64,000 bases of DNA, from the NCBI GenBank assembly GCA_000092065.1, contig CP000581.1; one strand, given 5' to 3'. The DNA is from Ostreococcus lucimarinus (taxonomy: Eukaryota). Both the position numbers and the translations under genes were made by a program. Under the pieces are notes generated by a model that did no database searches, had not been told where the DNA came from, and worked only from the letters and a program-made list of their open reading frames with translations. Shown piece after piece: positions 615 through 24,200 of this stretch (position 1 is its first letter; every line of letters starts with the position of its first letter).

Positions 615-2150
615 CTAAATGAGCGCATCGACGCCGTTTCCAAGCTCGTCGTCCGCGGCGACGTCGACGAGGAGGCGAGAGGCGAGATCGTCGTCGTCGT
701 CGAACGCCGAAGCGCCTCGAATGTGCTTCGAGCGCGCGATTTCCGTCGGCCAATCGATGCAGAGCGCGACGCGAGTCATGATGCCAGCGTGCGTGGCGGT
801 ACCGACGACACCTCCGATGGCCAAACCCATGGCACCGTAGCCCTTGTACGCGAGCCAAGCGCTCAGGGGCAAGCCGACGACGTAATACGCGAAGAGCACG
901 ATGGGAGTGGCAAACGCTTGACGTCCGGCGCCTCGCAGAACGCTCGTGCTGACGCAACACACGGCGTCGAAAAAGACGTAGAAAGCGAGTGGAACCATCA
1001 GTTTCGATACGAGCGCGCGAACGTCATGGTCAGACGTGAACGCGGCGCCCCATCGCTCGCGCGAGAGATACACCGTCGCGGAAACCGCGACTTCGACGAC
1101 GACGATCAAGCGCAACGCCACGGATGCGGCGAGCTTTGCGCGCGACGCATCTTTCGCGCCAACCTCGTTCGAAACTCGCGTCGCCGTCGCGGCGCCGAAA
1201 CCAACGGCCACCATGAACGCGAACGCGTTCGTCGCCTGGTAAATCGACATCGCCGAAATCGCGACGCTCGGATTTCGCAATTTCCCCGCCGCGAGCACGA
1301 TGAACTCGCTCGCCCACCACTCGCTCATTAACAAAACTCCGGGCACGCCCAGCTTCAGAAACAACACCAACCCCTCGCGGTCGAACATCGTCCTAAAGCA
1401 CACCCTCGACGCGCACGCGTCTCTGCGCTCCGCCAAAGCCTCGTCGCGTTCGCGAAACCATCCGTTCCGATTTCTTCTCAACCGCGCGTACGTCGCGTTC
1501 GCCGCGAACACCAAACTCGTGCTCACGCTCGTCGCGTACGCCGGCCCGACCGCACCGAACCCCATCCTTCGAAAGCACAGGCACGCCGGCGCGTGTAACG
1601 CCGTCGCCGCGACGCCCGCGCACGCGATGGGCCGCGTCGACCCCTGCGCCTGCAACCACGCCTGCGCGCACGCGTTCGCCGCGTACGCGAACAACCCCGG
1701 GCGCAATCCGCGCAAGTACGCCGCGCAGCTCCTCGCGATCGCCGCGTCGAAATGCCACGCCGACAGCCCCCCCTCGACGAACCGCCAGCCGATCGCCGTC
1801 GCCGTCGCCGTCGCCGCGCAGCACGCGAGCGCGCGCTGCGCCCACGCCCACGCCTCGCCGCCGCGCCCCTGACCGTACGCCTGCCCCCCCAGCGTCACCA
1901 GCGCGCTCACCAGCCCCACGACGACGGCGTTTCCCGTGACGTTCGCGATCGTGCTCGCGAGCGCCGCCCCCGCGAGCTCCGCCGTCGTCGCCGCGTCCGC
2001 GCCGACGAAGCCGAGCGAGATCAAGTCCCGCGCGCGGTTGCACAGCGACGCCAGCGTCACGGGCACCGCCAGCGCGACGTGCGCGCGCGCCTCCGCCGCG
2101 GCGCCGTCGACGTCGACGCCCATCGTCACCGCGCGCGCGCGTGTGCGCAA
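615..2150 (-). CDS. MATE (multidrug and toxic compound extrusion) family efflux transporter, DTX-like
   Basis: 511-aa ORF with about 12 hydrophobic segments. Contains the MATE signature motifs LGGQAYGQG (cf. LGAQAYGAG), MSEWWASEF and RVSNEVGA (cf. SVRVSNELGAG). Confidence 0.8.
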   Translation of the reverse strand: MRTRARAVTMGVDVDGAAAEARAHVALAVPVTLASLCNRARDLISLGFVGADAATTAELAGAALASTIANVTGNAVVVGLVSALVTLGGQAYGQGRGGEAWAWAQRALACCAATATATAIGWRFVEGGLSAWHFDAAIARSCAAYLRGLRPGLFAYAANACAQAWLQAQGSTRPIACAGVAATALHAPACLCFRRMGFGAVGPAYATSVSTSLVFAANATYARLRRNRNGWFRERDEALAERRDACASRVCFRTMFDREGLVLFLKLGVPGVLLMSEWWASEFIVLAAGKLRNPSVAISAMSIYQATNAFAFMVAVGFGAATATRVSNEVGAKDASRAKLAASVALRLIVVVEVAVSATVYLSRERWGAAFTSDHDVRALVSKLMVPLAFYVFFDAVCCVSTSVLRGAGRQAFATPIVLFAYYVVGLPLSAWLAYKGYGAMGLAIGGVVGTATHAGIMTRVALCIDWPTEIARSKHIRGASAFDDDDDLASRLLVDVAADDELGNGVDALI

Positions 2151-2336
2151 ACAGTGACGCGATGTTTACGGACGGCGACTCGCAAACACCCGGGTGTGAG
2201 GGGGGGGGACGAAACGAGACGTCGAACGCATCGACGACGCGCAATCGTCGACGCGCGCGACCGAACGAACGCGCGAACGCGCGAACGCGCGCGCGCGAAG
2301 ACGGACGGACGCGAACGCGGGGCGTCGACGCGCGCG

Positions 2337-4124
2337 ATGCATCTCAGGGCGCTCGCGATCGACGCGCTCGGACTCGTCGCGCCGCGATCGGTGGCGATTC
2401 AGGATTGGCGATTGCTGATTTCGTTGCAGGCGCTGCGGGGACTGGTGGCGTTTTACGTGCTGTACTCGCTGATCAACGGGAAGACGTACCTGCAGCAAGA
2501 GGTGCCGCACGGAACGATATCGAACATCGGGACGTCGACGGAGTATTTCGATGGACTCGTGGATAAGCACGCGTTTCACGCGCCGGGCGACGGCGCGACG
2601 ACGACGGTGACGGCGTCGAACGGGGTCTCGCGAACGTTTGATTTGATGCCGTGCAGCGATGCGACGGCGATCGACGCGGCGTACAAGTTTAATCGGTCGT
2701 TTGGGTTCGAGTTCGATCACTTGATGTGCGCGTTTCTCGACTCGGACGAACTCGTGAGGGAGTTCCCGAGCGGCGGGATTTTCGTCACGACGCACGTGTA
2801 CTACAAACTCGTCTACCGAAATTACCTCTCCGGCGGTTCGGCCGCGACGTGCGCGGCGGATACCTCGGGTCTCACGGTCGGGAGTAACCCGATCTTCACG
2901 AACGAAGGCGTACCTCTTACGGTCCCTTTGCGGAAAAAGCTCGGCGACGTCTGTTACTACTCCAAGGAGTTTTCGTACCTACCGGTCGCGCCCGAGGCCA
3001 TAGAAATCAGGATTGATCACACGTACGACACCGCTTCGGGCGTAAAAGCCGGCACGAATCCTCCGGTTTACGTTCGACGCGCTGGAAGCGACGTGGACAT
3101 CAAGACATTCGCCGCCGGCGAGTCTGTCCGTCTCACCGTGGAAGAGATTCTCGAAGCCGTCGGCGTCGATTTGGACAAGCGTTACGCCGAAATCGATTCC
3201 GTGAATGAGTTGTTCGGCCAAGGAGTCGATGCTGCGAACACTCCAAAAATCAGGACGGGCGGTATGCGCGTCATCGCCAAGATGCTCTACTACAACTACA
3301 ACCTCGACGGCAAAAGAAGCGCGACGGGCTCTCACGAACCGTACGCCGTGCTCGAGTTGACTCCTCGCCTGGCGTGGACAACTTTGGGCCAAGACGTCAC
3401 TCATCGCGTTCCCAGCGAAGGTGAGCTCGCAGAACCCGTGAGTTTCGGCAGCGGGAACTCGGGACGACCGAAAGATAATTACTATTCCGACTGGGAACGT
3501 TACGGTATTTACGTGGAAGTTTCCTCCGCCGGCATCATCGCCACCTTCAACTTGGTGTACTTTGTGAATGTGCTCGTTTCGGGTCTCGTGCTCTTCGGCG
3601 TGTCCCAGATCCTGTGCATCCTCATGGCGACAACGTGCTTTGGCGCGAGATCGAAGATGTATTCTCGCATGCTGTACGAGCGCACGCACTTTGAACGCAA
3701 CATCGCAGCCTACGGCGTTCAAGCAATCATCGCCGCTCAAATATTCAAGAACAGCGGCAAAACCGACGCGCTCACGGTCGATGATCTCACCGACCTACTC
3801 GAGTCGGCGTTCTCCCAATCGAAGGATGCGGAGAAGGGTGCAAACGTCGTCGTCGATGCGAAGCGTGCGTTTTCGCGCGACGAGTTGAAGCAAATGGCGT
3901 ACTACATCATTCGCTCCGGCAACTTTGAAGCGGTCGAGAAATACACAGAAAAACGCCTTCACCTCGGCGTCGACGAAGTCCACGACAAGACGATCAACAT
4001 GAACGAGTTCATCGATCTCGCCACCAGCGGCGCGATCGACGTCCCGCTCGTCAAGTCTATAATCCACTCCAACGGAGTTGGCCAAATCGAGGACTCGACG
4101 CCGTCGCCAGCCGCGGCGGCGTGA
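2337..4124 (+). CDS. hypothetical membrane protein with two TM helices flanking a ~430-aa hydrophilic domain
   Basis: The ORF is continuous from 1752, but the first ~195 codons are Arg-rich antisense of the MATE gene. I take ATG 2337 (MHLRALAID...) as the start. One TM follows (LISLQALRGLVAFYVLYSL), then a large Tyr/Asp-rich domain, a second TM (IIATFNLVYFVNVLVSGLVLFGVSQILCILMA) and an acidic tail. No family recognised. Confidence 0.45.
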   Translation: MHLRALAIDALGLVAPRSVAIQDWRLLISLQALRGLVAFYVLYSLINGKTYLQQEVPHGTISNIGTSTEYFDGLVDKHAFHAPGDGATTTVTASNGVSRTFDLMPCSDATAIDAAYKFNRSFGFEFDHLMCAFLDSDELVREFPSGGIFVTTHVYYKLVYRNYLSGGSAATCAADTSGLTVGSNPIFTNEGVPLTVPLRKKLGDVCYYSKEFSYLPVAPEAIEIRIDHTYDTASGVKAGTNPPVYVRRAGSDVDIKTFAAGESVRLTVEEILEAVGVDLDKRYAEIDSVNELFGQGVDAANTPKIRTGGMRVIAKMLYYNYNLDGKRSATGSHEPYAVLELTPRLAWTTLGQDVTHRVPSEGELAEPVSFGSGNSGRPKDNYYSDWERYGIYVEVSSAGIIATFNLVYFVNVLVSGLVLFGVSQILCILMATTCFGARSKMYSRMLYERTHFERNIAAYGVQAIIAAQIFKNSGKTDALTVDDLTDLLESAFSQSKDAEKGANVVVDAKRAFSRDELKQMAYYIIRSGNFEAVEKYTEKRLHLGVDEVHDKTINMNEFIDLATSGAIDVPLVKSIIHSNGVGQIEDSTPSPAAAA

Positions 4125-5579: not shown

Positions 5580-6281
5580 TCAAGGCGTCTTGTGCACGAC
5601 GTTTCCAGTAAACGGACACACAAACCCTTGTCCCGGTCGGAGGCTCGTCGGCAACGACGCCGCGGGATTGTTCAACTGCGCGCGCTCCCACGCCTCCACC
5701 CATGATCTATCGTCACCGCCGGATCCTTCGCGACTCGGCGGTCGAGGCGGGAGAAACGCTCTAGGCGTCTGCGCCGCCTCCTCTTCCTCTTCCAGCGCAC
5801 ACCGCGGCGGTGGCGTCATTTCCGACGTCGACAGCGGCGATAACTCGTACGACAACGGCGACAGTCCGTCGCCATCGTCCGGTGAGTCCGGCGCGAGTAT
5901 CTCCCGCCTCGGCGATTTCATCCGCGTCTGCGACCCCGAAATCGTCGCCGCCGTCGACGCCCTCTCCGTCTCCAACGCTCGCACCCGCGCTCGCAGCGTC
6001 TCCATCTCCTCCTCCATCGTCCGCCGCGCCCGTTCGTGCCGCGCCGTCACTTCTCGCAGCAGCGTCTTATATCCCGCGCGCAGCGCCTCGACCGACTTCG
6101 CGTCGTCCAGCGCCGCGTCGACGCCTCGTCCTCGCTCGAACCGCGCCGCCGTCGTCGCCGTCGCGCCGACCGTCGGCACCGCCTTCGCGCGCCACGCGAC
6201 GACGCCTCGCGCGTCGCTCGCCTCGCGCGTCCCGTCGTCGTCGTCGTCGTCGCGCGAATTCGCGTCGTCGCGAAACGTCAT
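5580..6281 (-). CDS. hypothetical small coiled-coil protein
   Basis: Only the C-terminal 233 codons of the 539-aa minus ORF. The upstream part is antisense to the GDSL gene. MTFRDD... has protein-like composition with a coiled-coil stretch (LLREVTARHERARRTMEEEMETLRARVRALETE), and the 1-kb gap would otherwise be unusually long for this locus. Weak. Confidence 0.3.
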   Translation of the reverse strand: MTFRDDANSRDDDDDDGTREASDARGVVAWRAKAVPTVGATATTAARFERGRGVDAALDDAKSVEALRAGYKTLLREVTARHERARRTMEEEMETLRARVRALETERASTAATISGSQTRMKSPRREILAPDSPDDGDGLSPLSYELSPLSTSEMTPPPRCALEEEEEAAQTPRAFLPPRPPSREGSGGDDRSWVEAWERAQLNNPAASLPTSLRPGQGFVCPFTGNVVHKTP

Positions 6282-6467
6282 CGCCGCGCCGCGCGCGCGC
6301 GTCGCCGCCGCCGCCGCCGCGCCGCCCTCGCGCGCGCCGCCGCGCGTCATCGCGCTCAGCGCCTCGGCGCGCGCGCGCCAGAACGCGCTCGTCGCGCCGT
6401 CGCGCGTCATGCTCTCGCGACAGCTCGCGCGCGATTCGAACGCCCGTCGTCGCCCGCGCCGCACACG

Positions 6468-7373
6468 ATGACGCCCGCGCGACGGCGGCGCGTCGTCGTG
6501 TTCGGAGACTCGCTCACGCAGCGTTCGTTCGAGCCGCACGGGTTCGGCGCGGCGCTGGTGCGCGACGGCGACGCGAAGACGATGGATTCGAACGCGCGAT
6601 GTCGCGACGACGACGCGCGCGACGACTGACGCGCGCGACGACGACGGCAGGCGAATCGGTACGCGCGCACGTGCGATGTGTTCAATCGCGGGTACGGGGG
6701 GTACAACTCGCGATGGTGCGCGCGCGAGGACGTCCTGGACGGGGCGTTCGCGGCGGACGCGCGGCGCGAGGGGCGGACGTTTCTGGCGACGGTGATGCTG
6801 GGGACGAACGACGCGACGCGAATGCGCGACGCGACGGCGGAGCGAACGAACAGGGTGAGGGTGGAGTTGGAGGAGTACGCGAAAAACATGCGAACGATCA
6901 TCGCGCGGGCGGTGGAGACGTCGGAGATCGTGGTGGCGATGACGCCGCCGGCGGTGGACGAACGACGACGCGTCGAGGCGCAACGCGAAAGATGGGGGGA
7001 GGACTGGGTCGGAGGACCGTTCGAGGATCATCGACCGGACGTCGAGGCGTACGGGAAGGCGCTCGTGGACGTGGTGCGCGAATTTCAGGAACGTCGACAT
7101 CGCGTCTACGCGTTGGATTTGTACGCGGAGACGCGCGCGGCGATGGAGCGCGGCGCGGTTTTGTTTGAAGACGGCGTGCACTTCGGCGAGGACGGACAAC
7201 GATTCGTGACGGAGAAGTTATTTCAAGTTTTAGATAGTTTGGATGCGGATCCTTCGGTGCCAGACTTTCCGTACGGGCACGAGATTCGAAACCCAGAGCG
7301 TGCGGCGATGAGCGCGGAAGAAGTGTTTGACGATCACGAAGCGAGACGTCCGAAAGAAGCGCTGGAACCTTGA
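6468..7373 (+). CDS. GDSL/SGNH-hydrolase esterase, IAH1 (isoamyl acetate-hydrolysing esterase)-like; two exons (6468-6557, 6651-7373)
   Basis: VVFGDSLTQ (GDS block), GFGAAL, NRGYGGYNSRW, VMLGTNDA and DGVHFGEDGQ (DxxH block). After removing 6558-6650 the junction reads GAAL|ANRYARTCDVFNRGYGGYNSRW, which aligns gaplessly with yeast IAH1 GAALVNEYTRKMDILQRGFKGYTSRW. Confidence 0.75.
6558..6650 (+). other. spliceosomal intron, 93 bp, GTGCGC...GGCAG, phase 0, contains an in-frame TGA
   Basis: Inferred from the IAH1-family alignment across the junction. GT/AG boundaries are present. The unspliced reading would stop at the TGA at 6627-6629. Confidence 0.7.
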
Positions 7374-7474: not shown

Positions 7475-10282
7475 TTACGACTCGTCGGCGCTGTCTTCGA
7501 CCGATCTCATGATCACGCCTTCTTCGACCGAGATGACGTCTTCAAACTTCGGTCGCGTGTTCTCCGGTGCTTTCGCTTGGACCTGCTGCTCAATCACGTC
7601 GGTTTTATCGTTCACCTCCGGGGCGTTCGTCTTGAGAACGCGAGCACGCACCTCCTTGGGCGCGCGTTCAACTTTTTTCACCTTCTTCGTCGCGAGAGTC
7701 GCGAGATTCGCGCGCTTGTCCGATCGCTTCATCATCTTGAGCGTATCCGCCATGAGCGCGACGTGCAAGCCATCCGTAGCGGCCATTTTCATGAGTCGTC
7801 CCTTTCCAGGATCGTGCGCCAAGTGATTCGCCGCGACCTGTCGGGACGTCGGCGTGCGGTAATAACGGCCATCCGAGCCCATTTCCCACGCGAGCACTTG
7901 GTCCGTCAAGCACGCGTCGAGGACTTCTTGTAACTCGGTTTGGATCTTCGGATCGTACACACGCGTGATGACCTCGACGCGTCGAAGTAGATTACGACGC
8001 ATCAAATCCGCGGACCCCATGTAGAACTCGGGTGATCCGTTGTTTTCAAATCGGAACACGCGGTGATGCTCGAGAAAACGCCCGACAATGGAGACGACTC
8101 GAATGTTTTCTGAGACGCCGGGGATGCCCGGTCTAACGCGGCAGATGCCTCGAATGATGAGATGAATCTTCACACCTGCCTGCGAAGCGCGATACAGCGC
8201 GGCGCATATTACCGCGTCGTCAAGGCCATTCATTTTAGCGATGATGGACGCCGGCTTTCCTTTGAGAGCGTTCTCTGCTTCGCGTTCAATCATCTCCACG
8301 AATTCATTTTGCATGCGCAACGGGGCGACGATGAGCTTGTTGAACCGTTCTTGGTAGTGATGGCCCATGAGAAACTTGAACAAGTTACTCACATCATCGC
8401 CAAGCTGGTCGTCACGCGACAACAAACCGAAATCCGTGTAGATACCCGCCGTCGATGGGTTGTAGTTGCCGGTACCGATGTGCACGTACTTGACCAACTT
8501 TTTACCTTCGCGACGCACGACAAGCGACGCCTTCGAGTGCGTCTTGACCCCCTTGACACCGTACGCAACGTTGCATCCGGCGGTTTCTAAGCGCTGCGCA
8601 AAACCCACGTTTCTTGCTTCGTCGAAACGCGCCTTGAGCTCGACGAGCACGGCTACTTGCTTACCGTTTTCAGCCGCCTTGATCAAGGCTCTGACGATGG
8701 GCGAATTGTCGCTCGTGCGATAAAGCGTAGACTTGATTGAAAGCACATCCGGATCTCGCGCGGCTTCTTCGATGAACGCCTGCGTTGATGTAGCGAAAGA
8801 GACGTACGGGTGATGCACGAGGATGTCTCCCTCAGAAATCGCGCTGAAAATGGTGCCTTCGCTTCCGCGAATTTGTTCCAAACGTGGATGCGTTCGCGGC
8901 GACCACGGTGGGTAAAGCATCTCGATATCCATGCCAAAATTTACCGGTAATGAATCGATTGTACCGAAACCGAGTGGCGCGCGATGAGGTACGGTAATGA
9001 CGTCCGTGAGCGTGATGCCGTCGAGAGAGTCGATCAATTTATCTCGAATGTACTCGGGCATCGTGTCCTGGACTTCGAGGCGAACAAAAGACGCAAACCG
9101 ACGCTCTCGCACCTCGTCTGCCATCATCTCGAGCAAATCTTCGGCTTCGTCTTCATTACGCTCTATGTCGGCATTGCGCGTGACGCGAAACACGTGCGTA
9201 TCACGAATATTGCATCCTCTGAAGAGTTTCTCCATGTTCGCTTCGATAAGCTGCTCGAGCGGCAAAAATCGCTGTTCGCTGGAATCTTTGCTATCGCCGA
9301 CTCGAATCCAACGCTCGAGCGCGGCGGGAACGCTCACGATGGCAAACTTTTCCTGCTTGAACGCATCTTCGAGTTCGACCGCGATGGAAAGCGAGAGGGA
9401 ACCGAGAAACGGAAACGGGTGGCACGGATCTATGGCGCGAGGATCGAGCACCGGTTCGATTTGAGCCTCGAAATAGTCTCCGAGTTTCGTTCTCAAGTCC
9501 TTACTCAGATCATCGTATTGCTCCAAGTAGATATTGTGCGCCTTCAAAGCTGGAACGATGTGATCCTCCAACAAAGCCGCTTGTGCGTCCACTTGTCGCT
9601 CCACCTCCGCCGCGACGTTTTGCAACGTCTCCTGCGGCGTCCACACCTCCCGTCCGCGCTGCTTTACCAAGTTCTCCAAACCCGCCGCCGCCTGTCGCTT
9701 GATCGCGCCGACGCGCTTCGCGAAGAACTCATCCAGATTTCTCGCGCTGATCGCCACGAATCGCAACCTTTCAAATATCGGCACCTCTTCGTTCGCCGCC
9801 ATCGCGAGCACTCGCCAGTTAAACGCCAACCACGACATCTCCGCGTTAAACACCGGATCGCTCTTCACCAGCGTCTCCACGTCGTACTCGCTCAGCGCAT
9901 CCTTATCTTCCTCCATTCCTTCCTGCGCGAACGGCGGCGTCACCGTGCGCATGGCGGCGATCGATTCGTTGAACACGTCTCGCAGCTCTCGCGCGTCGAC
10001 GACGCTCTTCTCGTGCAATTCTTCACCATTCGCGGCGATCGCTCGCGTCTCCCCTCGCACCGCGCGCTTGCTCCCTCGACGCACCGCCGCGACGCGCCCA
10101 CCGCTCGCGCGCGCGTCGCCCGCCGCGCTCGCGCGCGCGTCGCGTCGCACGAAGACGATCTCGCGCGCGACCTCGTCGCGTCGACAGTTCGTCGAAACGA
10201 CGCCTCGTCGCGCGCGCGCGCCCGGCGTCGCGCGCGCGCGCGGCGCGCCCGGCGTCGCGCGCGCGACGACGCTCGCGCGCAT
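7475..10282 (-). CDS. PPK1: polyphosphate kinase 1 (PPK1, bacterial type) with long N- and C-terminal extensions
   Basis: Both PLD-like HKD motifs of PPK1 are present. [47 protein letters not shown] matches E. coli [66 protein letters not shown]...[18 protein letters not shown] matches SIVDRFLEHSRIYYF...YIGSADWMPRNLDRRVEV. The 935-aa protein compares with ~690 aa for bacterial PPK1. Confidence 0.9.
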   Translation of the reverse strand: [935 protein letters not shown]

Positions 10283-10485
10283 CGCTCGCGTCGCCGCGGC
10301 GTCGCGGCGCGCGTCACCGCGGCGTCGAAGAATGCCATCGCGTCGAATCCGCGTCGGCGCGTCCGCGACGCCGCAGTGACGCGCGCGGGGCGGCTTCGCG
10401 CGCGCGCGCGCGCGCGCCGGTCGAGCGTCGCGCGACGCGCGTCGCGCTCGACGCCGACGCGGATTCGACGCGCGCGGCGCGCGAG

Positions 10486-12186
10486 ATGCCGCGCGCGAGG
10501 GCGAAAGACGGCGCGCGCGTCGTTCGCGCGATTTCGACGGCGCGCGACGCGGCGCGCGACGCGCGCGCGCGCGCGCGCGATGGACGACGATGGACGTCGA
10601 CGCGCGCGCGCGCGGGCGCGGAGGCGTCGACGTCGGCGCTCGGGAGCGGGCTGGACTTTCGAGCGCTGACGCGCGCGGGCGAGACGGCGAGCGCGGCGTA
10701 CGCGAGGCTGTGCGCCGAGGGCGTCGTGCGCGAAGACGAGGCGCAGAGACACGCGCTGAAAGCGCTGGACGTCGTCGGAGGGCGCGCGAGAGGGACGCGG
10801 CGGAGGGAAGGACTCGGCGCGGTGGGCGCGGGGGGAGGGTGGTCGTTCGCGGGGTGGCTCGGCGGCGACGCGAGCGCGAAACGCGAGGTCGAAGCCGGAG
10901 AGGGGGGGGCGTACGTGCACGGGGGACCGGGAAGCGGGAAAACGTTTGTGATGGATTTGTTTTACGCCACGCTGGACGGTGAACACGGCGTGGAGAAGCG
11001 TCGGGAGCATTTTCACTCGTTTATGCTCGAGACGCACACGCAGTTGCACAAGTTGAAGGACTCGGATAAGAACATGGACACCGTGGGTCAATACGCGTCG
11101 GCGTTGGCGAGAAAGATGCGCGTGCTGTGCTTGGACGAGTTTCAAATCGTCGACGTCGCGGACGCGATGATCATCAAGCGTCTGCTGGAAAATCTCTGGG
11201 CCGAGGGCGTGCTGGTGGTGACGACGAGCAACAGACATCCGGATGAGTTGTACAAGAATGGGTTGAATCGCGCGCAGTTTTTGCCGTGCATAGCGGAAAT
11301 TAAAAGACGATGCATCGTGCACGAGATGGCGAGCGATCGCGATTATCGTCTCACTGGACGCGCACGGAGTGAGGAGGACCAAGCGATGTGGAAATCCGGC
11401 GGCGACGAAGCCGAGCGCGAGCGTTGGCTGGTCGAACGCTTGCAAGTGCTCGCGGGCGAGCGCTCGTTCAAACCGCTACAAATAGCGATCGGTGGACGCC
11501 TCGTGCACGTCCGGCGCGCGGGTGGTGGCATCGCTCACTTTGATTTTAACGAGTTGTGTGACAGCGCTCTGGGCGCCGCCGATTACACCGCCCTCGCGAG
11601 CATCTTCAACTCCATAGGCGTCGGGCACGTGCCGACTTTGAGCTCAGACAGACTCGATCTGGTGCGAAGATTCATTACATTCATAGATGTCATGTACGAG
11701 CATAAGGTGAAACTCCTCGTGAGTGCGGATGCGTCGCCTGAAGAGCTGTACCGCGCGAGCGCCGGCGACGGATCTCGCAAAAACGCCGCCCGCGACGAAG
11801 AGTTCGCGTGGGACCGCGCAGCGAGTCGACTCGCGGAGATGCAGTCGAAAGAGTTTCAAGAGGCACCTTGGAATCCAAAAGCTGGGAGCTGGTTGCTCGA
11901 ACAGGCGCGCGTCACCGAAGTCGTTCCAGCGCAGGTTCTGCGCTCCTTGTGGCAACGCTACGACCGCAACCGAGACAACGTTTTGGACGAAACCGAGCTC
12001 GAGTGTTTGGTGGGCGACTTGAACCAGCTGCGAAGTGGACACAGGCACGTGTCCGAAGAACAATTAGACGCCGTGATGTCCATCGTGCGTGGATCGAAAA
12101 ATTTGCGCGAAAATCGATACATGACGTACGAAGAATTCACGCGATACGGGCACGCCGCCATGCTCGAATGCATGCGCGACCGCTAG
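10486..12186 (+). CDS. AFG1/LACE1 (ZapE)-family ATPase with a C-terminal EF-hand
   Basis: Walker A GGPGSGKTFVMDLFY, Walker B RVLCLDEFQIVD and the VTTSNRHPDELY block are typical of AFG1. The C-terminal extension carries a canonical EF-hand loop, DRNRDNVLDETEL. The real start may be an internal ATG such as 10590. Confidence 0.8.
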   Translation: MPRARAKDGARVVRAISTARDAARDARARARDGRRWTSTRARAGAEASTSALGSGLDFRALTRAGETASAAYARLCAEGVVREDEAQRHALKALDVVGGRARGTRRREGLGAVGAGGGWSFAGWLGGDASAKREVEAGEGGAYVHGGPGSGKTFVMDLFYATLDGEHGVEKRREHFHSFMLETHTQLHKLKDSDKNMDTVGQYASALARKMRVLCLDEFQIVDVADAMIIKRLLENLWAEGVLVVTTSNRHPDELYKNGLNRAQFLPCIAEIKRRCIVHEMASDRDYRLTGRARSEEDQAMWKSGGDEAERERWLVERLQVLAGERSFKPLQIAIGGRLVHVRRAGGGIAHFDFNELCDSALGAADYTALASIFNSIGVGHVPTLSSDRLDLVRRFITFIDVMYEHKVKLLVSADASPEELYRASAGDGSRKNAARDEEFAWDRAASRLAEMQSKEFQEAPWNPKAGSWLLEQARVTEVVPAQVLRSLWQRYDRNRDNVLDETELECLVGDLNQLRSGHRHVSEEQLDAVMSIVRGSKNLRENRYMTYEEFTRYGHAAMLECMRDR

Positions 12187-15279: not shown

Positions 15280-18200
15280 TTACTTGTCCTCGTTCGACAT
15301 GTCGAGGAGCTGCGTGAAATAATCCACCGCGCTGGCTGCGGTTTTCTTCGTTTCGTTGGTGTTTGTCTTGCGCGTGATGACGCTGCGCAGGGATGAAATG
15401 GTCATCGATTTGACGACGTCTTCGGCTTCGACGTCTTGAACCGAAATACCCATGGACTCGGCGTATTTGGATTTGAGATCGTCGAGTTCGCCGGCCACTT
15501 TTTTGGACTCTTCGAGAACCTTGAGTTCTTCATCGCTCAGGTTCACAAAGTCGCGGAGACGCTTTTTGGCCTCGTCGAGGGAAACGCGGAGGCGCTTGAT
15601 CTCCACGGCGTACTCATCGCGTTCGGTTGCCGTCTGCTCAAACGAACGTTCGAGCGCAAGTCTGTCGGCCTCGAGCTGCTTTTCTCGATCGGAGACGCTA
15701 AGCCTGAGGCTCTTTTCGGCTTTAGACTTTTCTTCCGCGACGATTTTGAGCGCTTTTTCGCGACTCGCTTTGAGCGCCGCGTCCTTCGCCGCGATGGTGT
15801 CTCTCAGTCGTGCCTCGTACGATTCGCGAAGCTTGGCGATATCGATCTCGCTTCGCTCGCGAAGTTCCTTGAGACTCGCTTGAGTTTTGGCTATCTCTTC
15901 GGCGTAAGCGTCAGCGTCGCCACGTCTGCCGGTCGAGGTCGCAACTTCCTTCTCAACAATCTTTTCAACCTCAACAATCTTCTCGACGACCTTCTCGACT
16001 ATTTGCGGCGGTCCGCCTGTTTGCCCGGCGCGCTTTTCCGCGTCGCGCACAGCCCGTTGAAGCGTTTCAACTTCTTGACGGAAGTCTACGACTAGCTTAT
16101 CAAACTGCGCGTTGAATTTGGCTTCAATTTCCAGATCACGATCGTTGAGCATGTTTTCAAAGTTGGCAATTTTGGCCTTGAGTTTATCATTCGCCTTCTT
16201 CGCCGTCGCACGAAGCGCCGCTTCAGATTTTGAGCGTTCGGCGGCGGCGATGGCCAATTGATCGCGCAACGCCTTCTTCGCTGTGGTTTCCGCCTCTCTC
16301 AGAGCCGCGATATATTCACGCTGTGCCGCGAGCTTGGCACTCTCGGTGAGCTTCTTTGCCGCCGCGATTTCAGTGCGCAAAGTCTTTTCCATACGGTCGC
16401 GCTCCGCCTTCGCAGCTTCCATCGCGGACGCCAACTTCTGGTTCGCAATCTTCTCAGAGTTTGCGAGCTGATTTTCGAGTGTAGAAACTTTGGATTCCAA
16501 AGCCTTAAGCTTTGATTCGGATTCGATGCGCATTGCTTTCTCTACCGCCTCGATTTCAGCCTTTTGTGCCGTCTTAAATTCGCTCAGTTTCTTCACGGCG
16601 GCTTCAAGATCACGCTCGAGCGTCGCAACCTTGCTAGGCGATTGAGCGGGCTTGCTCTTCTGTATGACTGACTCCGTCGGTGTAGACGCGTTCGTCTCCT
16701 TCATCGAGCGATTCGACGCGCCGAAGAGACGTTCAAAGAGCGAAGGCGCGGAAGTCTTCGCCGCTTCTTCAGCCGCCAACGCCGCTTCTTCAGCCGCCAA
16801 CGCCGCATCTTCCTTCGCTTTCGTAGCTTCTTCCTTCGCTGCAAGCAACTGATCGCGCAAAGTAACCATTTCACTTTGCGCCGCACGAAGCTTACGCTCG
16901 GCGTCTTCGCGCGCGGCTCGTTCAGCTGCAACCTTGCCTTTGTTGAATTCAAAGAGAGGGCGCTGAACGGAGGTTTCCGATACCACCTTCGATGACGAAG
17001 ATTGCTTCTTTGCGACATCGAGTTCATCAGTGAGTGCACCAACGCGTTGCTCATAAAAGGCGATCTTCTCTGCGAGAGTTACTTGCTCGGATTTCAATCT
17101 TCGCTCGAAGTCTTCCTTCATCAAAAGCATCGAACGGGACCATTTCGCCTCCGCTTCGGCAAACTCGGCCTGAACACTCGCAAGTCGATACTGGACATTC
17201 TCCATTTTCTTCGCCTGTTCCGCATAATCCCTGTGCGCACGTCTGATTTGCTTCTCAAGTTCGCGTTCGCGTGACTTGAGTTGCTTGTTCATTAGCTGCG
17301 CCGAGTCTCGTACGCGTTCTTTGAAGTCTTCGCGCAACGCGGCGAGAAGAACTTCAACCTCTCGCGTGTGCTCCTTGCTTTCTTGAATCTTTTGGTTGAA
17401 TTCTAAAGTAGCATCAGCCATTGTTTGAGCGACAGCGCGAACGATCTCGTCATTGTGCTTTTCCTTCATCGCGTTCATTTCAGAAATTCTAGAACCCAAC
17501 ATCGCCTGACTATTTTGATACTTGACCAAAATATCTGCTCGTTCGGATTCAAGACTGCGCACATTCGCTTCGTCGGCCTGAACACTCGCAAGTCGATACT
17601 GGACATTCTCCATTTTCTTCGCCTGTTCCGCATAATCCCTGTGCGCACGTCTGATTTGCTTCTCAAGTTCGCGTTCGCGTGACTTGAGTTGCTTGTTCAT
17701 TAGCTGCGCCGAGTCTCGCACGCGTTCTTTGAAGTCTTCGCGCAACGCGGCGAGAAGAACTTCAACCTCTCGCGTGTGCTCCTTGCTTTCTTGAATCTTT
17801 TGGTTGAATTCTAAAGTAGCATCAGCCGTTGTTTGAGCGACAGCGCGAACGATCTCGTCATTGTGCTTTTCCTTCATCGCGTTCATTTCAGAAATTCTAG
17901 AACCCAACATCGCCTGACTATTTTGATACTTGACCAAAATATCTGCTCGTTCGGATTCAAGACTGCGCACATTCGCTTCGTACGACTTTGCTTGATCTTT
18001 CCAAGCAACGGAGTCGAATTGCCATGCGTCACGTTCTTGCTCCAACTTGGCCATTTTACGAAGCATTTGTGCGACGGCAGCAGTCATCTCGTCATCCTCA
18101 TCAAACGACGCCGAGGCGTTTTCGGTAAGTCGCGCCAAATCGAGCGCATACTTTGTCTCTGCGTCGGCAACCGCACGTTCTCGCTCTTCGTTCAGGCGCG

Positions 18201-21200
18201 CCACGGTTACCGCGAGCTGTTCTTGAGCATCAGCTTGGAGCTTGGCGATGGCTGCGACGGTATCATCGCCGCTTTTAAGCTTGGACTCAAGCTCGGAGAT
18301 GCGTTGCTTGTACTCTTTGACAGTGGTTTCACTCTCGGCGGCAAAAGTAGAAGATGCGTTACTGACGGCGTCCTTCAACTCTGCTTTGAGTGCCGCGATT
18401 TCATTCGCTGAAGCTGAACTTTTTTGTTCAAACTCCAATGTCAGACGCGATATTTCCTCACGAAGCTTGACTTCGCGCTCTTGCGCATCGCGTGCTTCAG
18501 TCTCTGCAGCTGATAACAGCACAGTTTGATCTTTGATCTGAGCATTTACAGCATCAAGGGACGCGTCCTGTCCCTGGGAAGCGCCGATGATGCTAGCAAA
18601 AATTCCACCTCGATCGCCTTTCGCCTTGTCCAAAACAGCCTTGTATTTCTCTTCAGCCTTTTGCATGCCCTTGCGAGCTTTTTCTAGTTCCTTTTCTAGT
18701 CGTCGCTCGGAATCCAGCTTCTCAGACTGTAGTCTTGTCGTGACCGATAGCACATCTTGATCACGCTCAGCGCGGACGGCTTTGATTTGCGCTTCCAAGT
18801 CGAAGATATGCTTTTCCACGTCCGGGCTGCTCCTCTTAGCTTGCGTAGCGAACTCCGCTTCAAGTTTCTCAAGCTTTTCTTGAAGCGCGTCGCGCTGCTT
18901 CTTGAGACGCTTGACTTCGCCAGTGCTTCCCTCGAACTTGTACGTGACAGATTGGGGAAGGGTGTACTTAACTACACTCTTCTCACGCTTTTGCTGTTGT
19001 TTGCGTTTAAACGCATCCAACTCCTTGCGAGCCTCAGTGACTTCAAGCCTGAGCTCTGCTTCCGTCTCCGTCGCCGTGCGCTTGAGAGTCTTATTGAGCT
19101 TCTTTATCGTCGATTCGTAACCTTCGGAAACCTCTTCTAGTTGAAGTTCCAGTCGCTTGACTGTCGCCTCGTACTCCGCGGCGATTTCATCAGCCTGTAT
19201 CTTCGCAGACCTCTCAACTTCTTCGAGTTTTGCTTTCCACAAGTCCTCAGCTTGCTTTACCTTTGTAGTTTCATCGCTCGCGAGAGAAGTTTTCATGGCG
19301 TTTTGCAGGGTCTCGATCTCGAGAGTCTGAGCCGTGATCAGCGCCTCTTTTTCTTCTTGGAAGAGCTTTGACTCCTGCGATACGCGGTCATCCGCTTCCG
19401 ACTTGACCAAAGCAACCAACGCTACTCGATCAGCCTCCGCTGACGCCTGAATTTCAGCGACGGCTTGGATAAGCTCTCGTTCGGCGCTTTCGTTGGCATC
19501 GGCGAGTTGCTTCTTCAGAGCTGCAACTTGGTCATCAATCGTAGCGGTCTCTGTGTCCGTTTTCGACGTCGATTTCATGTTCGCGATAGTTTGCTCGTAG
19601 AGCCGCTTGGACTTTTGCATCTCGTCAAGTTGGGATTCAAGGCGTGTGACTTGCGCTTGAAGCGCGTCGCGCTCCTTCTCTAGCGATGCATCTACCTTGT
19701 TGCCAGTAAACTTATATGTCACTGTTTGAGGCAGCGTGTACTTGATGCCACCCTTACTTTTTTGCTTGAGGTCTTCGAGGTCCTTTTTCGTCGATTCGAC
19801 TCGTTTTCTAAGTTCACTTTCGCTAGACTTAGATGCTGCGAGCTGCGCTTTAATTTTCTTCATCTCATCGTCGTCACTCGACACCCACGCAGTAGAAGAT
19901 TGAAGCGCATCAATTTTACCTTGATACTCTTGCTTCAACCGATCAATCTGTGCATCCTTGGCTGCTTCGACCTCACGAATCTTCTGTTCCCAGAAAATAG
20001 ATGATTGAGCCTCGGCAGTGGCTACCTCAGCCGTGAACTCAACCATAGCGTCTGCGGACTGTTTTATCGCTTCGTTTCGCATCATCGCATACAGCGCGCG
20101 GCGCTCGCCAGCGCTTGAACGAGACGAAGCGTCGCGTTGCGCCAGCTCGGAAGACGCAAAGGCCTGAATACTAGCGACGGCCTCGACGAGATGCTCCTCG
20201 GCGATGGCTTTTTGCTCTTGCAAACGCCACGACTGCTCAGACAGCTGCTTCTTGAGATCCAGGATCATGGCATCCTTCGCCGCTGACTCGTCGCTCCCAG
20301 CGGTCGTCGCCGCGGGCACGGCGGGCGCCGCGCGTGCAGACGCCTTGAGTGACTCAATCTTCGCGTCATACTCTCGCTTGGTCTTCTGCATTTCCGTCAG
20401 CTGCGACTCGAGCGCGCTGATCTTGGCCTGCTGAGCCTTCATCAGCTTGTCGTCCGTGGAACCGCCCTCGAATGTGTACTTGATAAACTGCGGAAGTGTG
20501 TACTTCACACCGTTCTTCGACGCAGTCTTGAGCGACTGAAGTTCGGCTTTCGCCGCGTCGACTTGACCTCGGAGTTCGAGTTCGATCGACGAGCGCTTGG
20601 AGAGCTGCGCCTGCAGGTCGGACACGACGCTCGAGAGACCATCACTACCAGACGCCTTGGACATTGATGCCTTGAGCTCCTCGAGTTCACGCAGCGATGC
20701 GTCGAGCTGCGCCTTCTCGGCCGCCGCCGCCGCTTGCAGCTTGGCATTATCAGCGAGGATCGTCGCGACAGCCGCCTCAACTTGCTCTTCGGCATCGTTT
20801 TCGGCATCCTGCAGCTTCTTGTTGAGGGCGTCGATTTCGGCGCTTCTGTCAGAAACACCGGTCGTAGTGCTCGCCTTACTGGCCGCCCGGACTCGTTCGA
20901 TCTCTTCGTTGTGTGCCTTCTTCAGAGCAACCACGCGCTGCTCAAACTGAATCTGCGCGTCACGAATGGCGTCGTTCACTTGAGCGCTCGTGTCCACAGG
21001 TGAACCGGACGACGCGCGCAATGACGCCTCCAGCTGTTCGTTCTCAGCCTTGAGCTCAGCGACGGCCTCGACGAGCTGCTCCTCGGCGATGGCTTTTTGC
21101 TCTTGCAAACGCCACGACTGCTCAGACAGCTGCTTCTTGAGATCCAGGATCATGGCATCCTTCGCCGCTGACTCGTCGCTCCCAGCGGTCGTCGCCGCGG

Positions 21201-24200
21201 GCACGGCGGGCGCCGCGCGTGCAGACGCCTTGAGTGACTCAATCTTCGCGTCATACTCTCGCTTGGTCTTCTGCATTTCCGTCAGCTGCGACTCGAGCGC
21301 GCTGATCTTGGCCTGCTGAGCCTTCATCAGCTTGTCGTCCGTGGAACCGCCCTCGAATGTGTACTTGATAAACTGCGGAAGTGTGTACTTCACACCGTTC
21401 TTCGACGCAGTCTTGAGCGACTGAAGTTCGGCTTTCGCCGCGTCGACTTGACCTCGGAGTTCGAGTTCGATCGACGAGCGCTTGGAGAGCTGCGCCTGCA
21501 GGTCGGACACGACGCTCGAGAGACCATCACTACCAGACGCCTTGGACATTGATGCCTTGAGCTCCTCGAGTTCACGCAGCGATGCGTCGAGCTGCGCCTT
21601 CTCGGCCGCCGCCGCCGCTTGCAGCTTGGCATTATCAGCGAGGATCGTCGCGACAGCCGCCTCAACTTGCTCTTCGGCATCGTTTTCGGCATCCTGCAGC
21701 TTCTTGTTGAGGGCGTCGATTTCGGCGCTTCTGTCAGAAACACCGGTCGTAGTGCTCGCCTTACTGGCCGCCCGGACTCGTTCGATCTCTTCGTTGTGTG
21801 CCTTCTTCAGAGCAACCACGCGCTGCTCAAACTGAATCTGCGCGTCACGAATGGCGTCGTTCACTTGAGCGCTCGTGTCCACAGGTGAACCGGACGACGC
21901 GCGCAATGACGCCTCCAGCTGTTCGTTCTCAGCCTTGAGCTCAGCGACGGCCTCGACGAGCTGCTCCTCGGCGATGGCTTTTTGCTCTTGCAAACGCCAC
22001 GACTGCTCAGACAGCTGCTTCTTGAGATCCAGGATCATGGCATCCTTCGCCGCTGACTCGTCGCTCCCAGCGGTCGTCGCCGCGGGCACGGCGGGCGCCG
22101 CGCGTGCAGACGCCTTGAGTGACTCAATCTTCGCGTCATACTCTCGCTTGGTCTTCTGCATTTCCGTCAGCTGCGACTCGAGCGCGCTGATCTTGGCCTC
22201 TAGCGCGTTAACATTCGCAGTGTTTTCCGGTGTTTTTCTAGACGTGTCTTCGAATTTGTAAGTAATGCTTTCCGGCGAAGTGTACTTGACGGTCTGCTGT
22301 GCGGATGCTATCTGATTTCGGAGATCACGCTCAACTTCGGTTCGCTCGCGCAGCTGCCGCTGGAGCTCCGTAATCTCCGCCGACACGTCCACGCCCGGTG
22401 TGTCTGATTTGATTAAAGCCTTCAGCTCTTCGAGCTCGCACAGGGACGCGTCGAGCTGCGACTTTGCAGCGTCAACCGCGGCTTGCAGCCGGTCTTTATC
22501 AGCAACGATTTCCGCTACCGCGCGCTTTACTGCCTCTTCGCGTTCTTTTTGCGCATCTTCCAACTGCTTATTGAGCGCGGCGACCTGCGCGTCCACATCT
22601 TTGCTACTACTCGAGCTGGATGAGGCTTGTAAATCCGCAATCTTTTGTTCGTACGACTGCCTGAGCTGCTTCAGCTGTGCATCCTTCATGAGCTCAACGT
22701 CCTTGATCTTTTTCTCCCAGTATGCAGGAGATTCCACAGCGTGGGTGCTGGCCTTACTGGCCGCCCGGACTCGTTCGATCTCTTCGTTGTGCGCCTTCTT
22801 CAGAGCAACCACGCGCTGCTCAAACTGAATCTGCGCGTCACGAATGGCGTCGTTCAGCTGAACTCTTGCTTCGGCAGTTGAGCTGGACGATGCGCGCAAT
22901 GAAGCCTCCAGCTGTTCGTTCTCAGCCTTGAGCTCAGCGACGGCCTCGACGAGCTGCTCCTCGGCAATTGCCATGTTCTCAGACAGCTGCTTCTTGAGAT
23001 CTATGATTTCTTCGTTAGCGTCAAACTGGTTCAATCTCTTAACCGCCTCGGCGCGCATCATTTTGTACATCGCGTTACGTTCTCCAGTTGTGGATTTAAG
23101 AGCTGACTCGAGTTGTACCTTGCTAGCTTCAGCAAGCGACTGGATTTCAGCAACCGCTCGAACGAGCATATCATCATACATCTCCTTGAGCGTAGTTACA
23201 TCCTGTTTTACCGCGTCCTGCTCTGAAGCAAGATTCGATTTAACGTTGATGCGCTCGGCTTCAAACTGTGCGAGAAGCTGAGCTTTTGACGCTTCACTCT
23301 CGTTCAACTTGGAGATAGCGTCACGTGCGCGATCCTCCGCTTGCGTGACTCTTCTATCCGACTCTCTACGTGCGTCTTCTAATGCTGTCGCGTGAGCAGC
23401 GGCTGTAGTCTGTATCGCCATCTGATGCGCCTGTTCGAGGGCTTTTATTTTGGCTGGTGCGTCATCCTTCGTCGCGCTCCTTTTAAGGCGCTCTAGCTCT
23501 TCGTTGTGCGCCTTCTTCAGAGCAACCACACGCTGCTCAAACTGGATCTGCGCGTCACGAATGGCGTCGTTCATCTTCTTGCTACTCGAAACTTCGCTTA
23601 TGGCAACTTCACTTTGAAGCCGCGTCAAAGTTCGCTCGCTCGCTTTGCGCATCTCAGAGTCGAACATCGACTTGAGCGCACGACGCTCGCCCGCAACTCC
23701 ACGCACAGCTTCGTCACGAACTGCGTCAACGTCCACGTCGTTTCGCATTTCGACCGGAGATACCGCGACCTGAGATTTCTTTGAAACCTTGACTCGTTCG
23801 ATCTCTTCGTTGTGCGCCTTCTTCAGAGCAACCACGCGCTGCTCAAAGTTAAGCTGCTCCTCACGGAGTGCCGCGTTAAATTGATCGACGCTCAGCGCGC
23901 TCTGGCTCGGCTTTGAGGCGTTACTCGCCTTGACTCGTTCGATCTCTTCGTTGTGCGCCTTCTTCAGAGCAACCACGCGCTGCTCAAAGTTAAGCTGCTC
24001 CTCACGGAGTGCCGCGTTAAATTGATCGACGCTCAGCGCGCTCTGGCTCGGCTTTGAGGCGTTACTCGCCTTGACTCGTTCGATCTCTTCGTTGTGCGCC
24101 TTCTTCAGAGCAACCACGCGCTGCTCAAATTTAAGCTGCTCCTCACGGAGTGCCGCGTTGAATTGATCGACGCTCAGCGCGCTCTGGCTCGGCTTTGAGG

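Follow-up and report, generated by a model that had tools for sequence, protein, structure and literature searches.

A nuclear bacterial-type polyphosphate kinase (PPK1) of Ostreococcus lucimarinus, probably acquired by ancient horizontal gene transfer

Background

Whitehead, Hooley and Brown (BMC Res Notes 2013) listed the protein A4RQI1 of Ostreococcus lucimarinus and its counterpart in O. tauri among the few convincing eukaryotic members of the bacterial-type polyphosphate kinase family PPK1 (PMC3680246). Intronless genes and long N-terminal extensions were reported as typical for the eukaryotic PPK1s, and an acquisition in the common ancestor of Ostreococcus and Physcomitrella was proposed (PMC3680246). 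Here we present the analysis of a stretch of 64,000 nucleotides of O. lucimarinus (contig CP000581.1 of assembly GCA_000092065.1), called the window in the following, which carries on its minus strand, at positions 7475 to 10282, an intronless and complete coding sequence for PPK1 with an ATG start, 935 codons and a TAA stop; the orthologue in O. tauri is ostta01g00620. This is the nuclear ppk1 gene on chromosome 1 of an O. lucimarinus-type picoalga. The gene itself is already known, it is catalogued as A4RQI1 and was published in 2013 as derived from horizontal gene transfer (HGT) (PMC3680246). Our refinements, namely a corrected gene model, a revised layout of the extensions and evidence for a donor outside the cyanobacteria, are minor and leave the basic picture unchanged. 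An intact, nuclear PPK1 gene of Ostreococcus that goes back to HGT from a bacterium is the best explanation for the complete set of observations, and we hold it with high confidence.

A preliminary description of the locus, made from the sequence alone, had delimited the same 935-codon reading frame on the minus strand, and this observation was correct. Its interpretation was for the most part correct or partly supported, as detailed below, although the gene was already present in the literature.

Results and discussion

Identity, predicted fold and active site

The translated protein presented the four Pfam domains of PPK1 in canonical order, with E-values between 2e-30 and 9e-70 and bit scores of 105, 177, 234 and 220, where the cutoffs are 24-31. 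All domains are encoded on the minus strand: the PP_kinase_N domain (aa 145-253, positions 9524-9850), which holds Asn182, the equivalent of N45 in Escherichia coli; the PP_kinase middle or head domain (aa 265-432, 8987-9490); the PLD-like domain PP_kinase_C_1 (aa 478-642, 8357-8851) with His582, His601, Arg522 and Arg552; and the PP_kinase_C domain, also named C2 (aa 650-814, 7841-8335), with His739, Arg711 and Arg768. The full-length family models were matched far above their cutoffs, NCBIfam TIGR03705 (poly_P_kin) with 768.5 bits against 465.85 and NF003921 with a score of 858 against 701. Chains of PPK1 structures in the PDB (2o8r, 9uuh, 1xdo) matched aa 140-819 with E-values of about 1e-104.

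In E. coli PPK, H435, H454 and H592 are the catalytic and partner histidines. Residues were mapped on the E. coli MG1655 sequence. His582 (nt 8537-8539) aligned with H435 and is the predicted autophosphorylated histidine; His601 (nt 8480-8482) and His739 (nt 8066-8068) aligned with H454 and H592, respectively. The ATP-binding residues N45, R375, R405, R564 and R621 correspond to N182, R522, R552, R711 and R768 and are all conserved. The catalytic histidines were invariant in alignments of 20 and of 50 sequences, the ATP-binding residues across 50 homologues.

An AlphaFold model calculated with the 50-sequence alignment had a mean pLDDT of 78.7 and a pTM of 0.78; it was confident from about aa 95 to aa 868, and most residues of aa 100-860 had a pLDDT exceeding 90. 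Compared by Foldseek with 1xdo_A, this model reached a target-normalised TM-score of 0.87 at an E-value of 7e-52, and similar results were obtained for 9uuh, 2o8r, 9uri and 9urj; over the structures of E. coli, Porphyromonas gingivalis and other PPK1s the target-normalised TM-scores ranged from 0.86 to 0.88. Judged by domain content, residue conservation and predicted structure, the reading frame thus encodes a genuine full-length PPK1 with an intact active site, in agreement with the preliminary description of a bacterial-type enzyme with a full catalytic core. Since the catalytic apparatus and the fold known from E. coli are completely conserved, a working PPK1 is to be expected. By analogy, the dimeric enzyme would take over the gamma-phosphate of ATP onto His582 and would then pass it processively and reversibly from this residue to the growing polyphosphate (polyP) chain.

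Gene model

The exact 935-aa sequence was present in a protein collection, where its 90 % cluster contains the protein of O. lucimarinus CCE9901 (XP_001415736.1, UniProt A4RQI1); the aldo-keto reductase and the AFG1-like ATPase encoded nearby clustered likewise with O. lucimarinus proteins. The public O. lucimarinus model, however, has only 813 aa. It begins at Met123 of our reading frame, lacks the first 122 aa and hence omits the presequence-like region together with a helix at aa 97-110 that is kept in O. tauri, in other Ostreococcus clades and in Bathycoccus. In the same organisms the entire segment of residues 97-122 is conserved. In-frame methionines are located at positions 1, 111, 123 and 149, so that Met1 is the sole ATG upstream of the conserved segment and helix 97-110 can be included only by a start at this codon. 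Between Met1 and the divergently oriented AFG1-like gene lies nothing but a spacer of 203 nt (10283-10485). Because of the conservation of residues 97-122, the single ATG upstream of them and the short spacer to the next gene, the 935-aa model is, on the sequence data, better than the public 813-aa model, which omits the putative presequence.

Distribution in the green lineage and bacterial origin

The best database matches were the proteins of other Ostreococcus clades with 76-85 % identity, at the lower end the orthologue of O. tauri, followed by Bathycoccus prasinos with about 60 %. Further orthologues with 45-56 % identity were found in the streptophyte algae Closterium, Spirogloea and Mesostigma, in the moss Ceratodon, and in Pycnococcus and Tetraselmis. 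The closest bacterial matches originated from metagenome-assembled genomes (MAGs) of Caldilineaceae (50-52 %) and from Thermoanaerobaculia (about 49 %), while the 17 cyanobacterial PPK1s among the matches listed had 45-48 % identity to the window protein.

A tree of the core region was calculated from 161 sequences and 648 columns after trimming by neighbour-joining (NJ), with 200 bootstraps and two simple distance corrections. With E. coli left out, the 37 green-lineage sequences formed one group with 100 % bootstrap support, and the 17 cyanobacterial PPK1s formed a clade of their own, again with 100 %. The green lineage was united with a clade of 26 Caldilineaceae-like sequences by a split with 96-98 % support under the two distance corrections, and in none of the 200 bootstraps (0/200) did it join the cyanobacteria. 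Rooting with E. coli alone was discarded, as the deep nodes were weak and E. coli was drawn to divergent chlorophyte sequences, which was judged to be a long-branch effect. Profile models (HMMs) built for five clades pointed in the same direction: all 37 green-lineage sequences scored best against the Caldilineaceae-like model, 110-210 bits over the cyanobacterial one, and for each of the 37 the cyanobacterial model was the lowest or second-lowest of the five. A third line of evidence comes from a region outside the tree alignment. A motif of about 30 aa ahead of the N domain, '(V)MPP...D(D/E)L..S..VYN.EL.WL.FNWR', occurred in the green lineage and in the Caldilineaceae-like clade only. Cyanobacterial PPK1s lack this segment; they have about 20-45 N-terminal residues and then a conserved 'DPQYYFNRELSWLEFN' motif.

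Orthologues span chlorophytes and streptophytes, from Ostreococcus to the moss Ceratodon, within the single fully supported group, and therefore an ancient HGT into an ancestor of the Viridiplantae, before the divergence of chlorophytes and streptophytes, is well supported by the sequence comparisons. A single eukaryotic clade, a host-like codon usage and a conserved chromosomal position were all observed, as expected for such a transfer, which the preliminary description had already suggested. As NJ tree, clade HMM scores and the motif outside the tree alignment agree, the donor looks, in the sample used, closest to Caldilineaceae-type Chloroflexota and not to cyanobacteria. The gene would thus have been acquired from a bacterium with present-day nearest relatives of this type and would since have adopted the codon usage of its host.

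The preliminary description had offered endosymbiotic gene transfer (EGT) as a second possible route, by which the gene would have come from the cyanobacterium that gave rise to the plastid. This origin would agree with the restriction of the gene to photosynthetic lineages among the eukaryotic matches, with the published finding that a PPK1 of Cyanothece is associated with those of the eukaryotes (PMC3680246), and with cyanobacterial identities that are only little below the best bacterial value of 52 %. The green lineage was, however, neither nested in nor sister to the cyanobacteria, a result of NJ only, and the low scores of the cyanobacterial HMM and the missing pre-N-domain segment agree with the core phylogeny. 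We consider a cyanobacterial ancestry very unlikely.

Several points weigh against a Chloroflexota-like donor. The study of Whitehead et al. preferred a donor among the cyanobacteria (PMC3680246). The phylogeny is based on neighbour-joining with simple corrected distances and not on maximum likelihood, and with E. coli as sole outgroup the support of deep nodes fell to 44-73 %. Of the 26 members of the Caldilineaceae-like clade no more than 3 have a taxonomic name, most of the others being metagenomic. The bacterial sequences were the top 120 hits to the query together with those of a genome scan (600 stretches among the matches listed), hence a biased sample and not a census.

As an observation apart, the tryptophan of the N-domain sequence 'FNWR' was common to the PPK1s of the green lineage, the Caldilineaceae-like clade and Rhodothermales/Bacteroidota (bacterial loci L001-L080), while other residues occupied this position in Cyanobacteria, Actinomycetota and Thermoanaerobaculia. 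This tryptophan may serve as a signature by which the PPK1 family can be subdivided.

Genomic context and exclusion of contamination

PPK1 is overwhelmingly a bacterial enzyme, and the gene has no intron and, with 0.577, a lower GC content than the immediate neighbours (0.61-0.65). Taken for themselves, these features could indicate bacterial contamination or a chimeric assembly. They are outweighed by the context of the gene. The order AAA (an ATPase), 4HBT (a thioesterase), AFG1-EF-hand, PPK1, GDSL, x, AKR (aldo-keto reductase) and MatE was kept on three independent environmental contigs from metagenome and SRA data. Chromosome 1 of O. tauri has the same order, except that the lineage of the window contains one additional ORF between AKR and MatE. 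The closest relatives of the protein are all from green-lineage eukaryotes, and the O. tauri protein was detected by mass spectrometry (PMC7407893). The relative synonymous codon usage of PPK1 correlated with that of the pooled other genes of the window with a coefficient of 0.956, and the GC content at third codon positions (GC3) was 0.69, within the range of 0.62-0.79 for the window. The preliminary description of a local codon style was thus appropriate, and that of a local GC content only in part, because the overall value is at the low end.

The neighbour downstream, only about 100 nt away, contains a spliceosomal intron. It is a convergently oriented GDSL/SGNH esterase gene on the plus strand (6468-7373), whose 3' end faces that of PPK1, with the same position in O. 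tauri. Exon 1 (6468-6557) and exon 2 (6651-7373) are separated by a GT-AG intron of 93 nt in phase 0 (6558-6650) with a GC content of 0.71. The spliced product matched the Pfam GDSL profile over positions 1-177 of 178 with 66 bits, the unspliced sequence only over positions 38-177 with 46 bits. A donor GT at 6601 was considered and rejected, as the GT at 6558 yields the phase-0 intron of 93 nt, the junction '...GFGAAL|ANRYARTCDVFNRGYGGYNSRW' and an end-to-end Pfam GDSL match. Metagenomic gene calls of this esterase gave exon 2 only (231 aa) and miss the catalytic GDS(L) block of exon 1.

A further eukaryotic marker in the window is a plus-strand gene (56855-63397) for a nucleolar 60S ribosome-biogenesis factor of the URB1/Npa1 type with 2180 aa, an N-terminal Npa1 domain and a NopRA1 domain. 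Together with the assignment of neighbouring proteins to O. lucimarinus clusters, these genes corroborate the eukaryotic, intron-bearing surroundings stated in the preliminary description, and the comparison with other assemblies it had proposed gave no indication of a chimeric or bacterial contig. On account of the synteny, the intron in the adjoining gene and the host-like codon usage, contamination and chimerism are excluded; the residual probability we attach to an artefact is negligible.

On the other side, the divergent neighbour (10486-12186, plus strand) encodes an AFG1-like ATPase that carries an EF-hand region at its C-terminus, and the gene is syntenic in O. tauri. Pfam gave an AFG1_ATPase match and a weak EF-hand_7 match, and O. 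tauri has the same fusion. Arranged divergently over 203 nt, this gene and PPK1 may share a bidirectional promoter.

N-terminal extension and putative organelle targeting

By the Pfam boundaries, 144 aa precede and 121 aa follow the domains; the about 200 aa at both ends given in the preliminary description were an overestimate. Compared to the closest bacterial homologues, the extra N-terminal part is still smaller and comprises only about aa 1-112. It consists of two dissimilar sections. The first, aa 1-95 (positions 9998-10282, minus strand), is a lineage-specific, Arg/Ala-rich extension with a sequence not conserved among the orthologues and a candidate organellar presequence. The AlphaFold model predicts disorder for aa 1-91, with a pLDDT of about 30. 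The first 35 residues contain nine arginines and neither aspartate nor glutamate, and thus the Arg-rich start noticed in the preliminary description is real. The coding region of the extension has a GC content of 0.72 and a GC3 of 0.83. The second section, aa 96-144 (9851-9997), is a structured add-on with pLDDT values of 89-96. It is made up of the helix at aa 97-110, confident in the model and conserved in the Mamiellophyceae (Ostreococcus, Bathycoccus), and of a structured 'TPPF...D.E.L..SD.VFN' segment at about aa 113-144, common to the PPK1s of Caldilineaceae-like bacteria and missing from the cyanobacterial ones.

At the boundary from basic to acidic sequence, just ahead of the acidic stretch, aa 80-83 (nt 10034-10045) form a semi-conserved RAI[AST] motif. 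Such a motif could be read as a mitochondrial R-3 or as a stromal processing site. The green-lineage orthologues all have, ahead of the conserved part, N-termini that are basic or hydroxylated, poor in acidic residues and not conserved in sequence; in the streptophyte orthologues, Ser and Thr account for 32-42 % of the first 60 aa. The composition of a presequence, basic, acid-free, unstructured and not conserved, is therefore present. Its specificity is low, since such N-termini are common in this GC-rich genome. We favour, by a modest degree of confidence and from sequence features, the view that the disordered basic extension of about 90 aa is an organellar presequence. Because the N-termini of the streptophyte orthologues are rich in Ser and Thr, the plastid appears to be a somewhat more likely destination than the mitochondrion.

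Two observations speak against targeting. Arg/Ala-rich N-termini are also present on the AFG1-like, the aldo-keto reductase and a giant coiled-coil ORF of the window, and composition alone is weak evidence of targeting in this GC-rich genome. TargetP and SignalP gave no common targeting signal among the eukaryotic PPK1s (PMC3680246). For O. lucimarinus the latter result is uninformative, as the published TargetP run used the 813-aa model without the 122 N-terminal residues.

An enzyme that is not imported into plastid or mitochondrion is a serious alternative, to which we assign a probability somewhat under one half. The N-terminal 90 aa would then be a disordered linker or a regulatory region and PPK1 would be active in the cytosol or at vacuoles or vesicles of an acidocalcisome-like kind, a location as reported for DdPPK1 of Dictyostelium; the basic part of the C-terminal tail might mediate an association with membranes or polyP. 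Besides the missing common signal, a retention outside the organelles would be in line with the classical storage of algal polyP in acidocalcisomes (PMC7332688, PMC11528361) and with the general occurrence of N-terminal extensions in eukaryotic PPK1s, those of non-photosynthetic organisms included (PMC3680246). Basic Arg/Ala-rich N-termini, moreover, arise in this genome as a general consequence of GC-rich 5' coding regions. Against it stands the toxicity of polyP made by a cytosolic PPK1: reviews describe toxic effects of the E. coli enzyme when it is expressed in the cytosol of yeast, of Arabidopsis and of mammalian cells (PMC6973038, PMC7339613, PMC10657179). Moreover, the acid-poor N-terminus is kept by all green-lineage orthologues, and the streptophyte ones resemble in their Ser/Thr content the transit peptides of land plants. 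In the literature nothing decisive was found on the localisation of any green-lineage PPK1. In the targeting model that we prefer, the disordered basic N-terminus would direct PPK1 into the organelle, where polyP could accumulate without cytosolic toxicity.

C-terminal region

The sequence behind the last Pfam domain is likewise composite. An insertion specific to the green lineage and the terminal helix occupy aa 815-853 (positions 7724-7840, minus strand). Relative to the closest bacterial homologues the insertion comprises about 15-20 aa near aa 815-837; the helix, aa 838-851, is predicted to be folded and corresponds in the alignment to the final helix of the bacterial PPK1s. Past the bacterial C-terminus follows a tail of aa 854-935 (7478-7723), predicted to be disordered from aa 869 to 935 in the AlphaFold model. 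The preliminary description of a Lys-rich tail applies to the proximal part, which is rich in Lys and Arg (aa 851-897, net charge +8), and not to the distal end, which is acidic (aa 898-935, net charge -6). Behind the basic part, a short motif 'RPxFxDV(I/L)' at aa 910-917 is conserved in the Mamiellophyceae from Ostreococcus to Bathycoccus. Streptophyte orthologues end in a shorter basic, Lys-rich tail. A Pfam search with the isolated N-terminal (145 aa) and C-terminal (125 aa) extensions at E<=1 yielded as sole match a sub-threshold FkbH_N with an E-value of 0.024. A Nudix domain was found neither in the whole protein at E<=0.01 nor in the isolated extensions at E<=1. One may speculate that the basic stretch beside the terminal helix contacts polyP, a membrane or a partner protein.

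Physiological role

We infer the enzymatic activity of the Ostreococcus PPK1, its localisation and the role of its tails from sequence and homology. Expression is documented for O. tauri, where the protein ostta01g00620 was detected by proteomics among the proteins elevated under phosphorus deprivation (PMC7407893). This response allows two directions of the reaction. PPK1 could work mainly in reverse and form ATP or other nucleoside triphosphates from polyP supplied by another enzyme such as VTC, thus acting as a polyP-utilising kinase or nucleoside diphosphate kinase. The PPK1 reaction is reversible (PMC6973038), the O. tauri protein rises on phosphate withdrawal, at a time when stores are consumed, and the related Micromonas pusilla possesses VTC4 (PMC7332688). 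Yet bacterial ppk1 is also induced by phosphorus limitation and is nevertheless the main synthase, and streptophyte algae and mosses, reported to have lost SPX-VTC (PMC11528361), keep PPK1, which suggests a synthase role in these organisms. In the literature nothing decisive was found on VTC4 in Ostreococcus. A predominantly reverse operation appears improbable to us.

Synthesis of polyP being the preferred direction, a more far-reaching proposal can be formulated: the green-lineage PPK1, obtained from a Caldilineae-like donor before the split of chlorophytes and streptophytes, would be an organelle polyP synthase, most likely of the plastid. Kept in picoprasinophytes, streptophyte algae and mosses, it would maintain there a polyP pool independent of VTC, with the conserved basic C-terminal tail and the RPxFxDV motif serving regulation or tethering as additions specific to eukaryotes. 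In this full form the proposal is tentative and in our view rather doubtful.

Ostreococcus and Bathycoccus are abundant members of the marine picophytoplankton under phosphate scarcity, hence their polyP synthesis bears on phosphorus cycling in the ocean. The conserved PPK1 of the green lineage is under-appreciated although it was published in 2013, and its structured and disordered add-ons are testable by deletion.

Further features of the window

An uninterrupted ORF of 3675 aa without Pfam match extends over positions 15280-26307 on the minus strand, with a GC content of 0.55, below the surroundings, and a strong AT skew. Its coiled-coil-like product is rich in Ala, Glu, Lys, Leu and Gln, has an Arg-rich N-terminus and looks like a giant structural protein. 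An ORF of 790 aa (1752-4124, plus strand) matched the P2X receptor family of Pfam over aa 583-643 only below the threshold (E-value 8.6e-4; 18.9 bits, cutoff 27); this may be a divergent P2X-like channel or a chance match. Long ORFs of 450-560 aa were also present antisense or out of frame to real genes, at 8984-10669 (plus strand), 9940-11445 (minus), 5580-7199 (minus) and 5810-7168 (plus). With their Arg/Ala/Ser-rich translations these ORFs, one of them opposite PPK1, were rejected as genes and regarded as artefacts of the GC-rich sequence.

Comparison with known systems

VTC4, the vacuolar polyP polymerase, forms the same product, polyP from ATP, with an unrelated fold: a TTM tunnel, an SPX domain and transmembrane domains couple synthesis to translocation, and none of these is present in the Ostreococcus PPK1. 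Among the algae, a nuclear PPK1 with polyP accumulation is described for Cyanidioschyzon merolae as a PPK1-Nudix fusion (Yagisawa et al. 2025, as cited in PMC12526157). The extensions of the Ostreococcus protein, unlike this fusion, contain no Nudix or other Pfam domain, and the red algal PPK1s belong to a different group (PMC3680246). In Dictyostelium discoideum, too, a eukaryote has gained a bacterial-type PPK1, DdPPK1, whose N-terminal extension is long (PMC3680246, PMC10657179). DdPPK1 was outside our top matches and is likened here by description only; in the published tree it falls into a separate eukaryotic group (PMC3680246).

With the bacterial enzymes, represented by E. coli PPK (1XDO/1XDP) and P. 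gingivalis PPK1 (2O8R), the Ostreococcus protein has in common the four-domain architecture, the predicted fold, the catalytic histidines and the ATP-binding Arg and Asn residues. It differs from E. coli PPK, to which it is about 30 % identical, in about 112 extra N-terminal residues, the insertion before the last helix, the C-terminal tail of 82 aa and its nuclear location. Closer are the PPK1s of Caldilineaceae-type Chloroflexota (the MAG sequences P0035, P0036, P0059 and relatives) with 50-52 % identity and with the pre-N-domain segment and FNWR in common; these stop directly behind the terminal helix and have neither the basic presequence-like region nor the tail. The closest described systems are A4RQI1, which is the gene itself, and the orthologue of O. 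tauri, ostta01g00620 (Q01H21), which is 76 % identical, is framed by the same flanking genes and, like A4RQI1, was listed as an HGT-derived PPK1 (PMC3680246).

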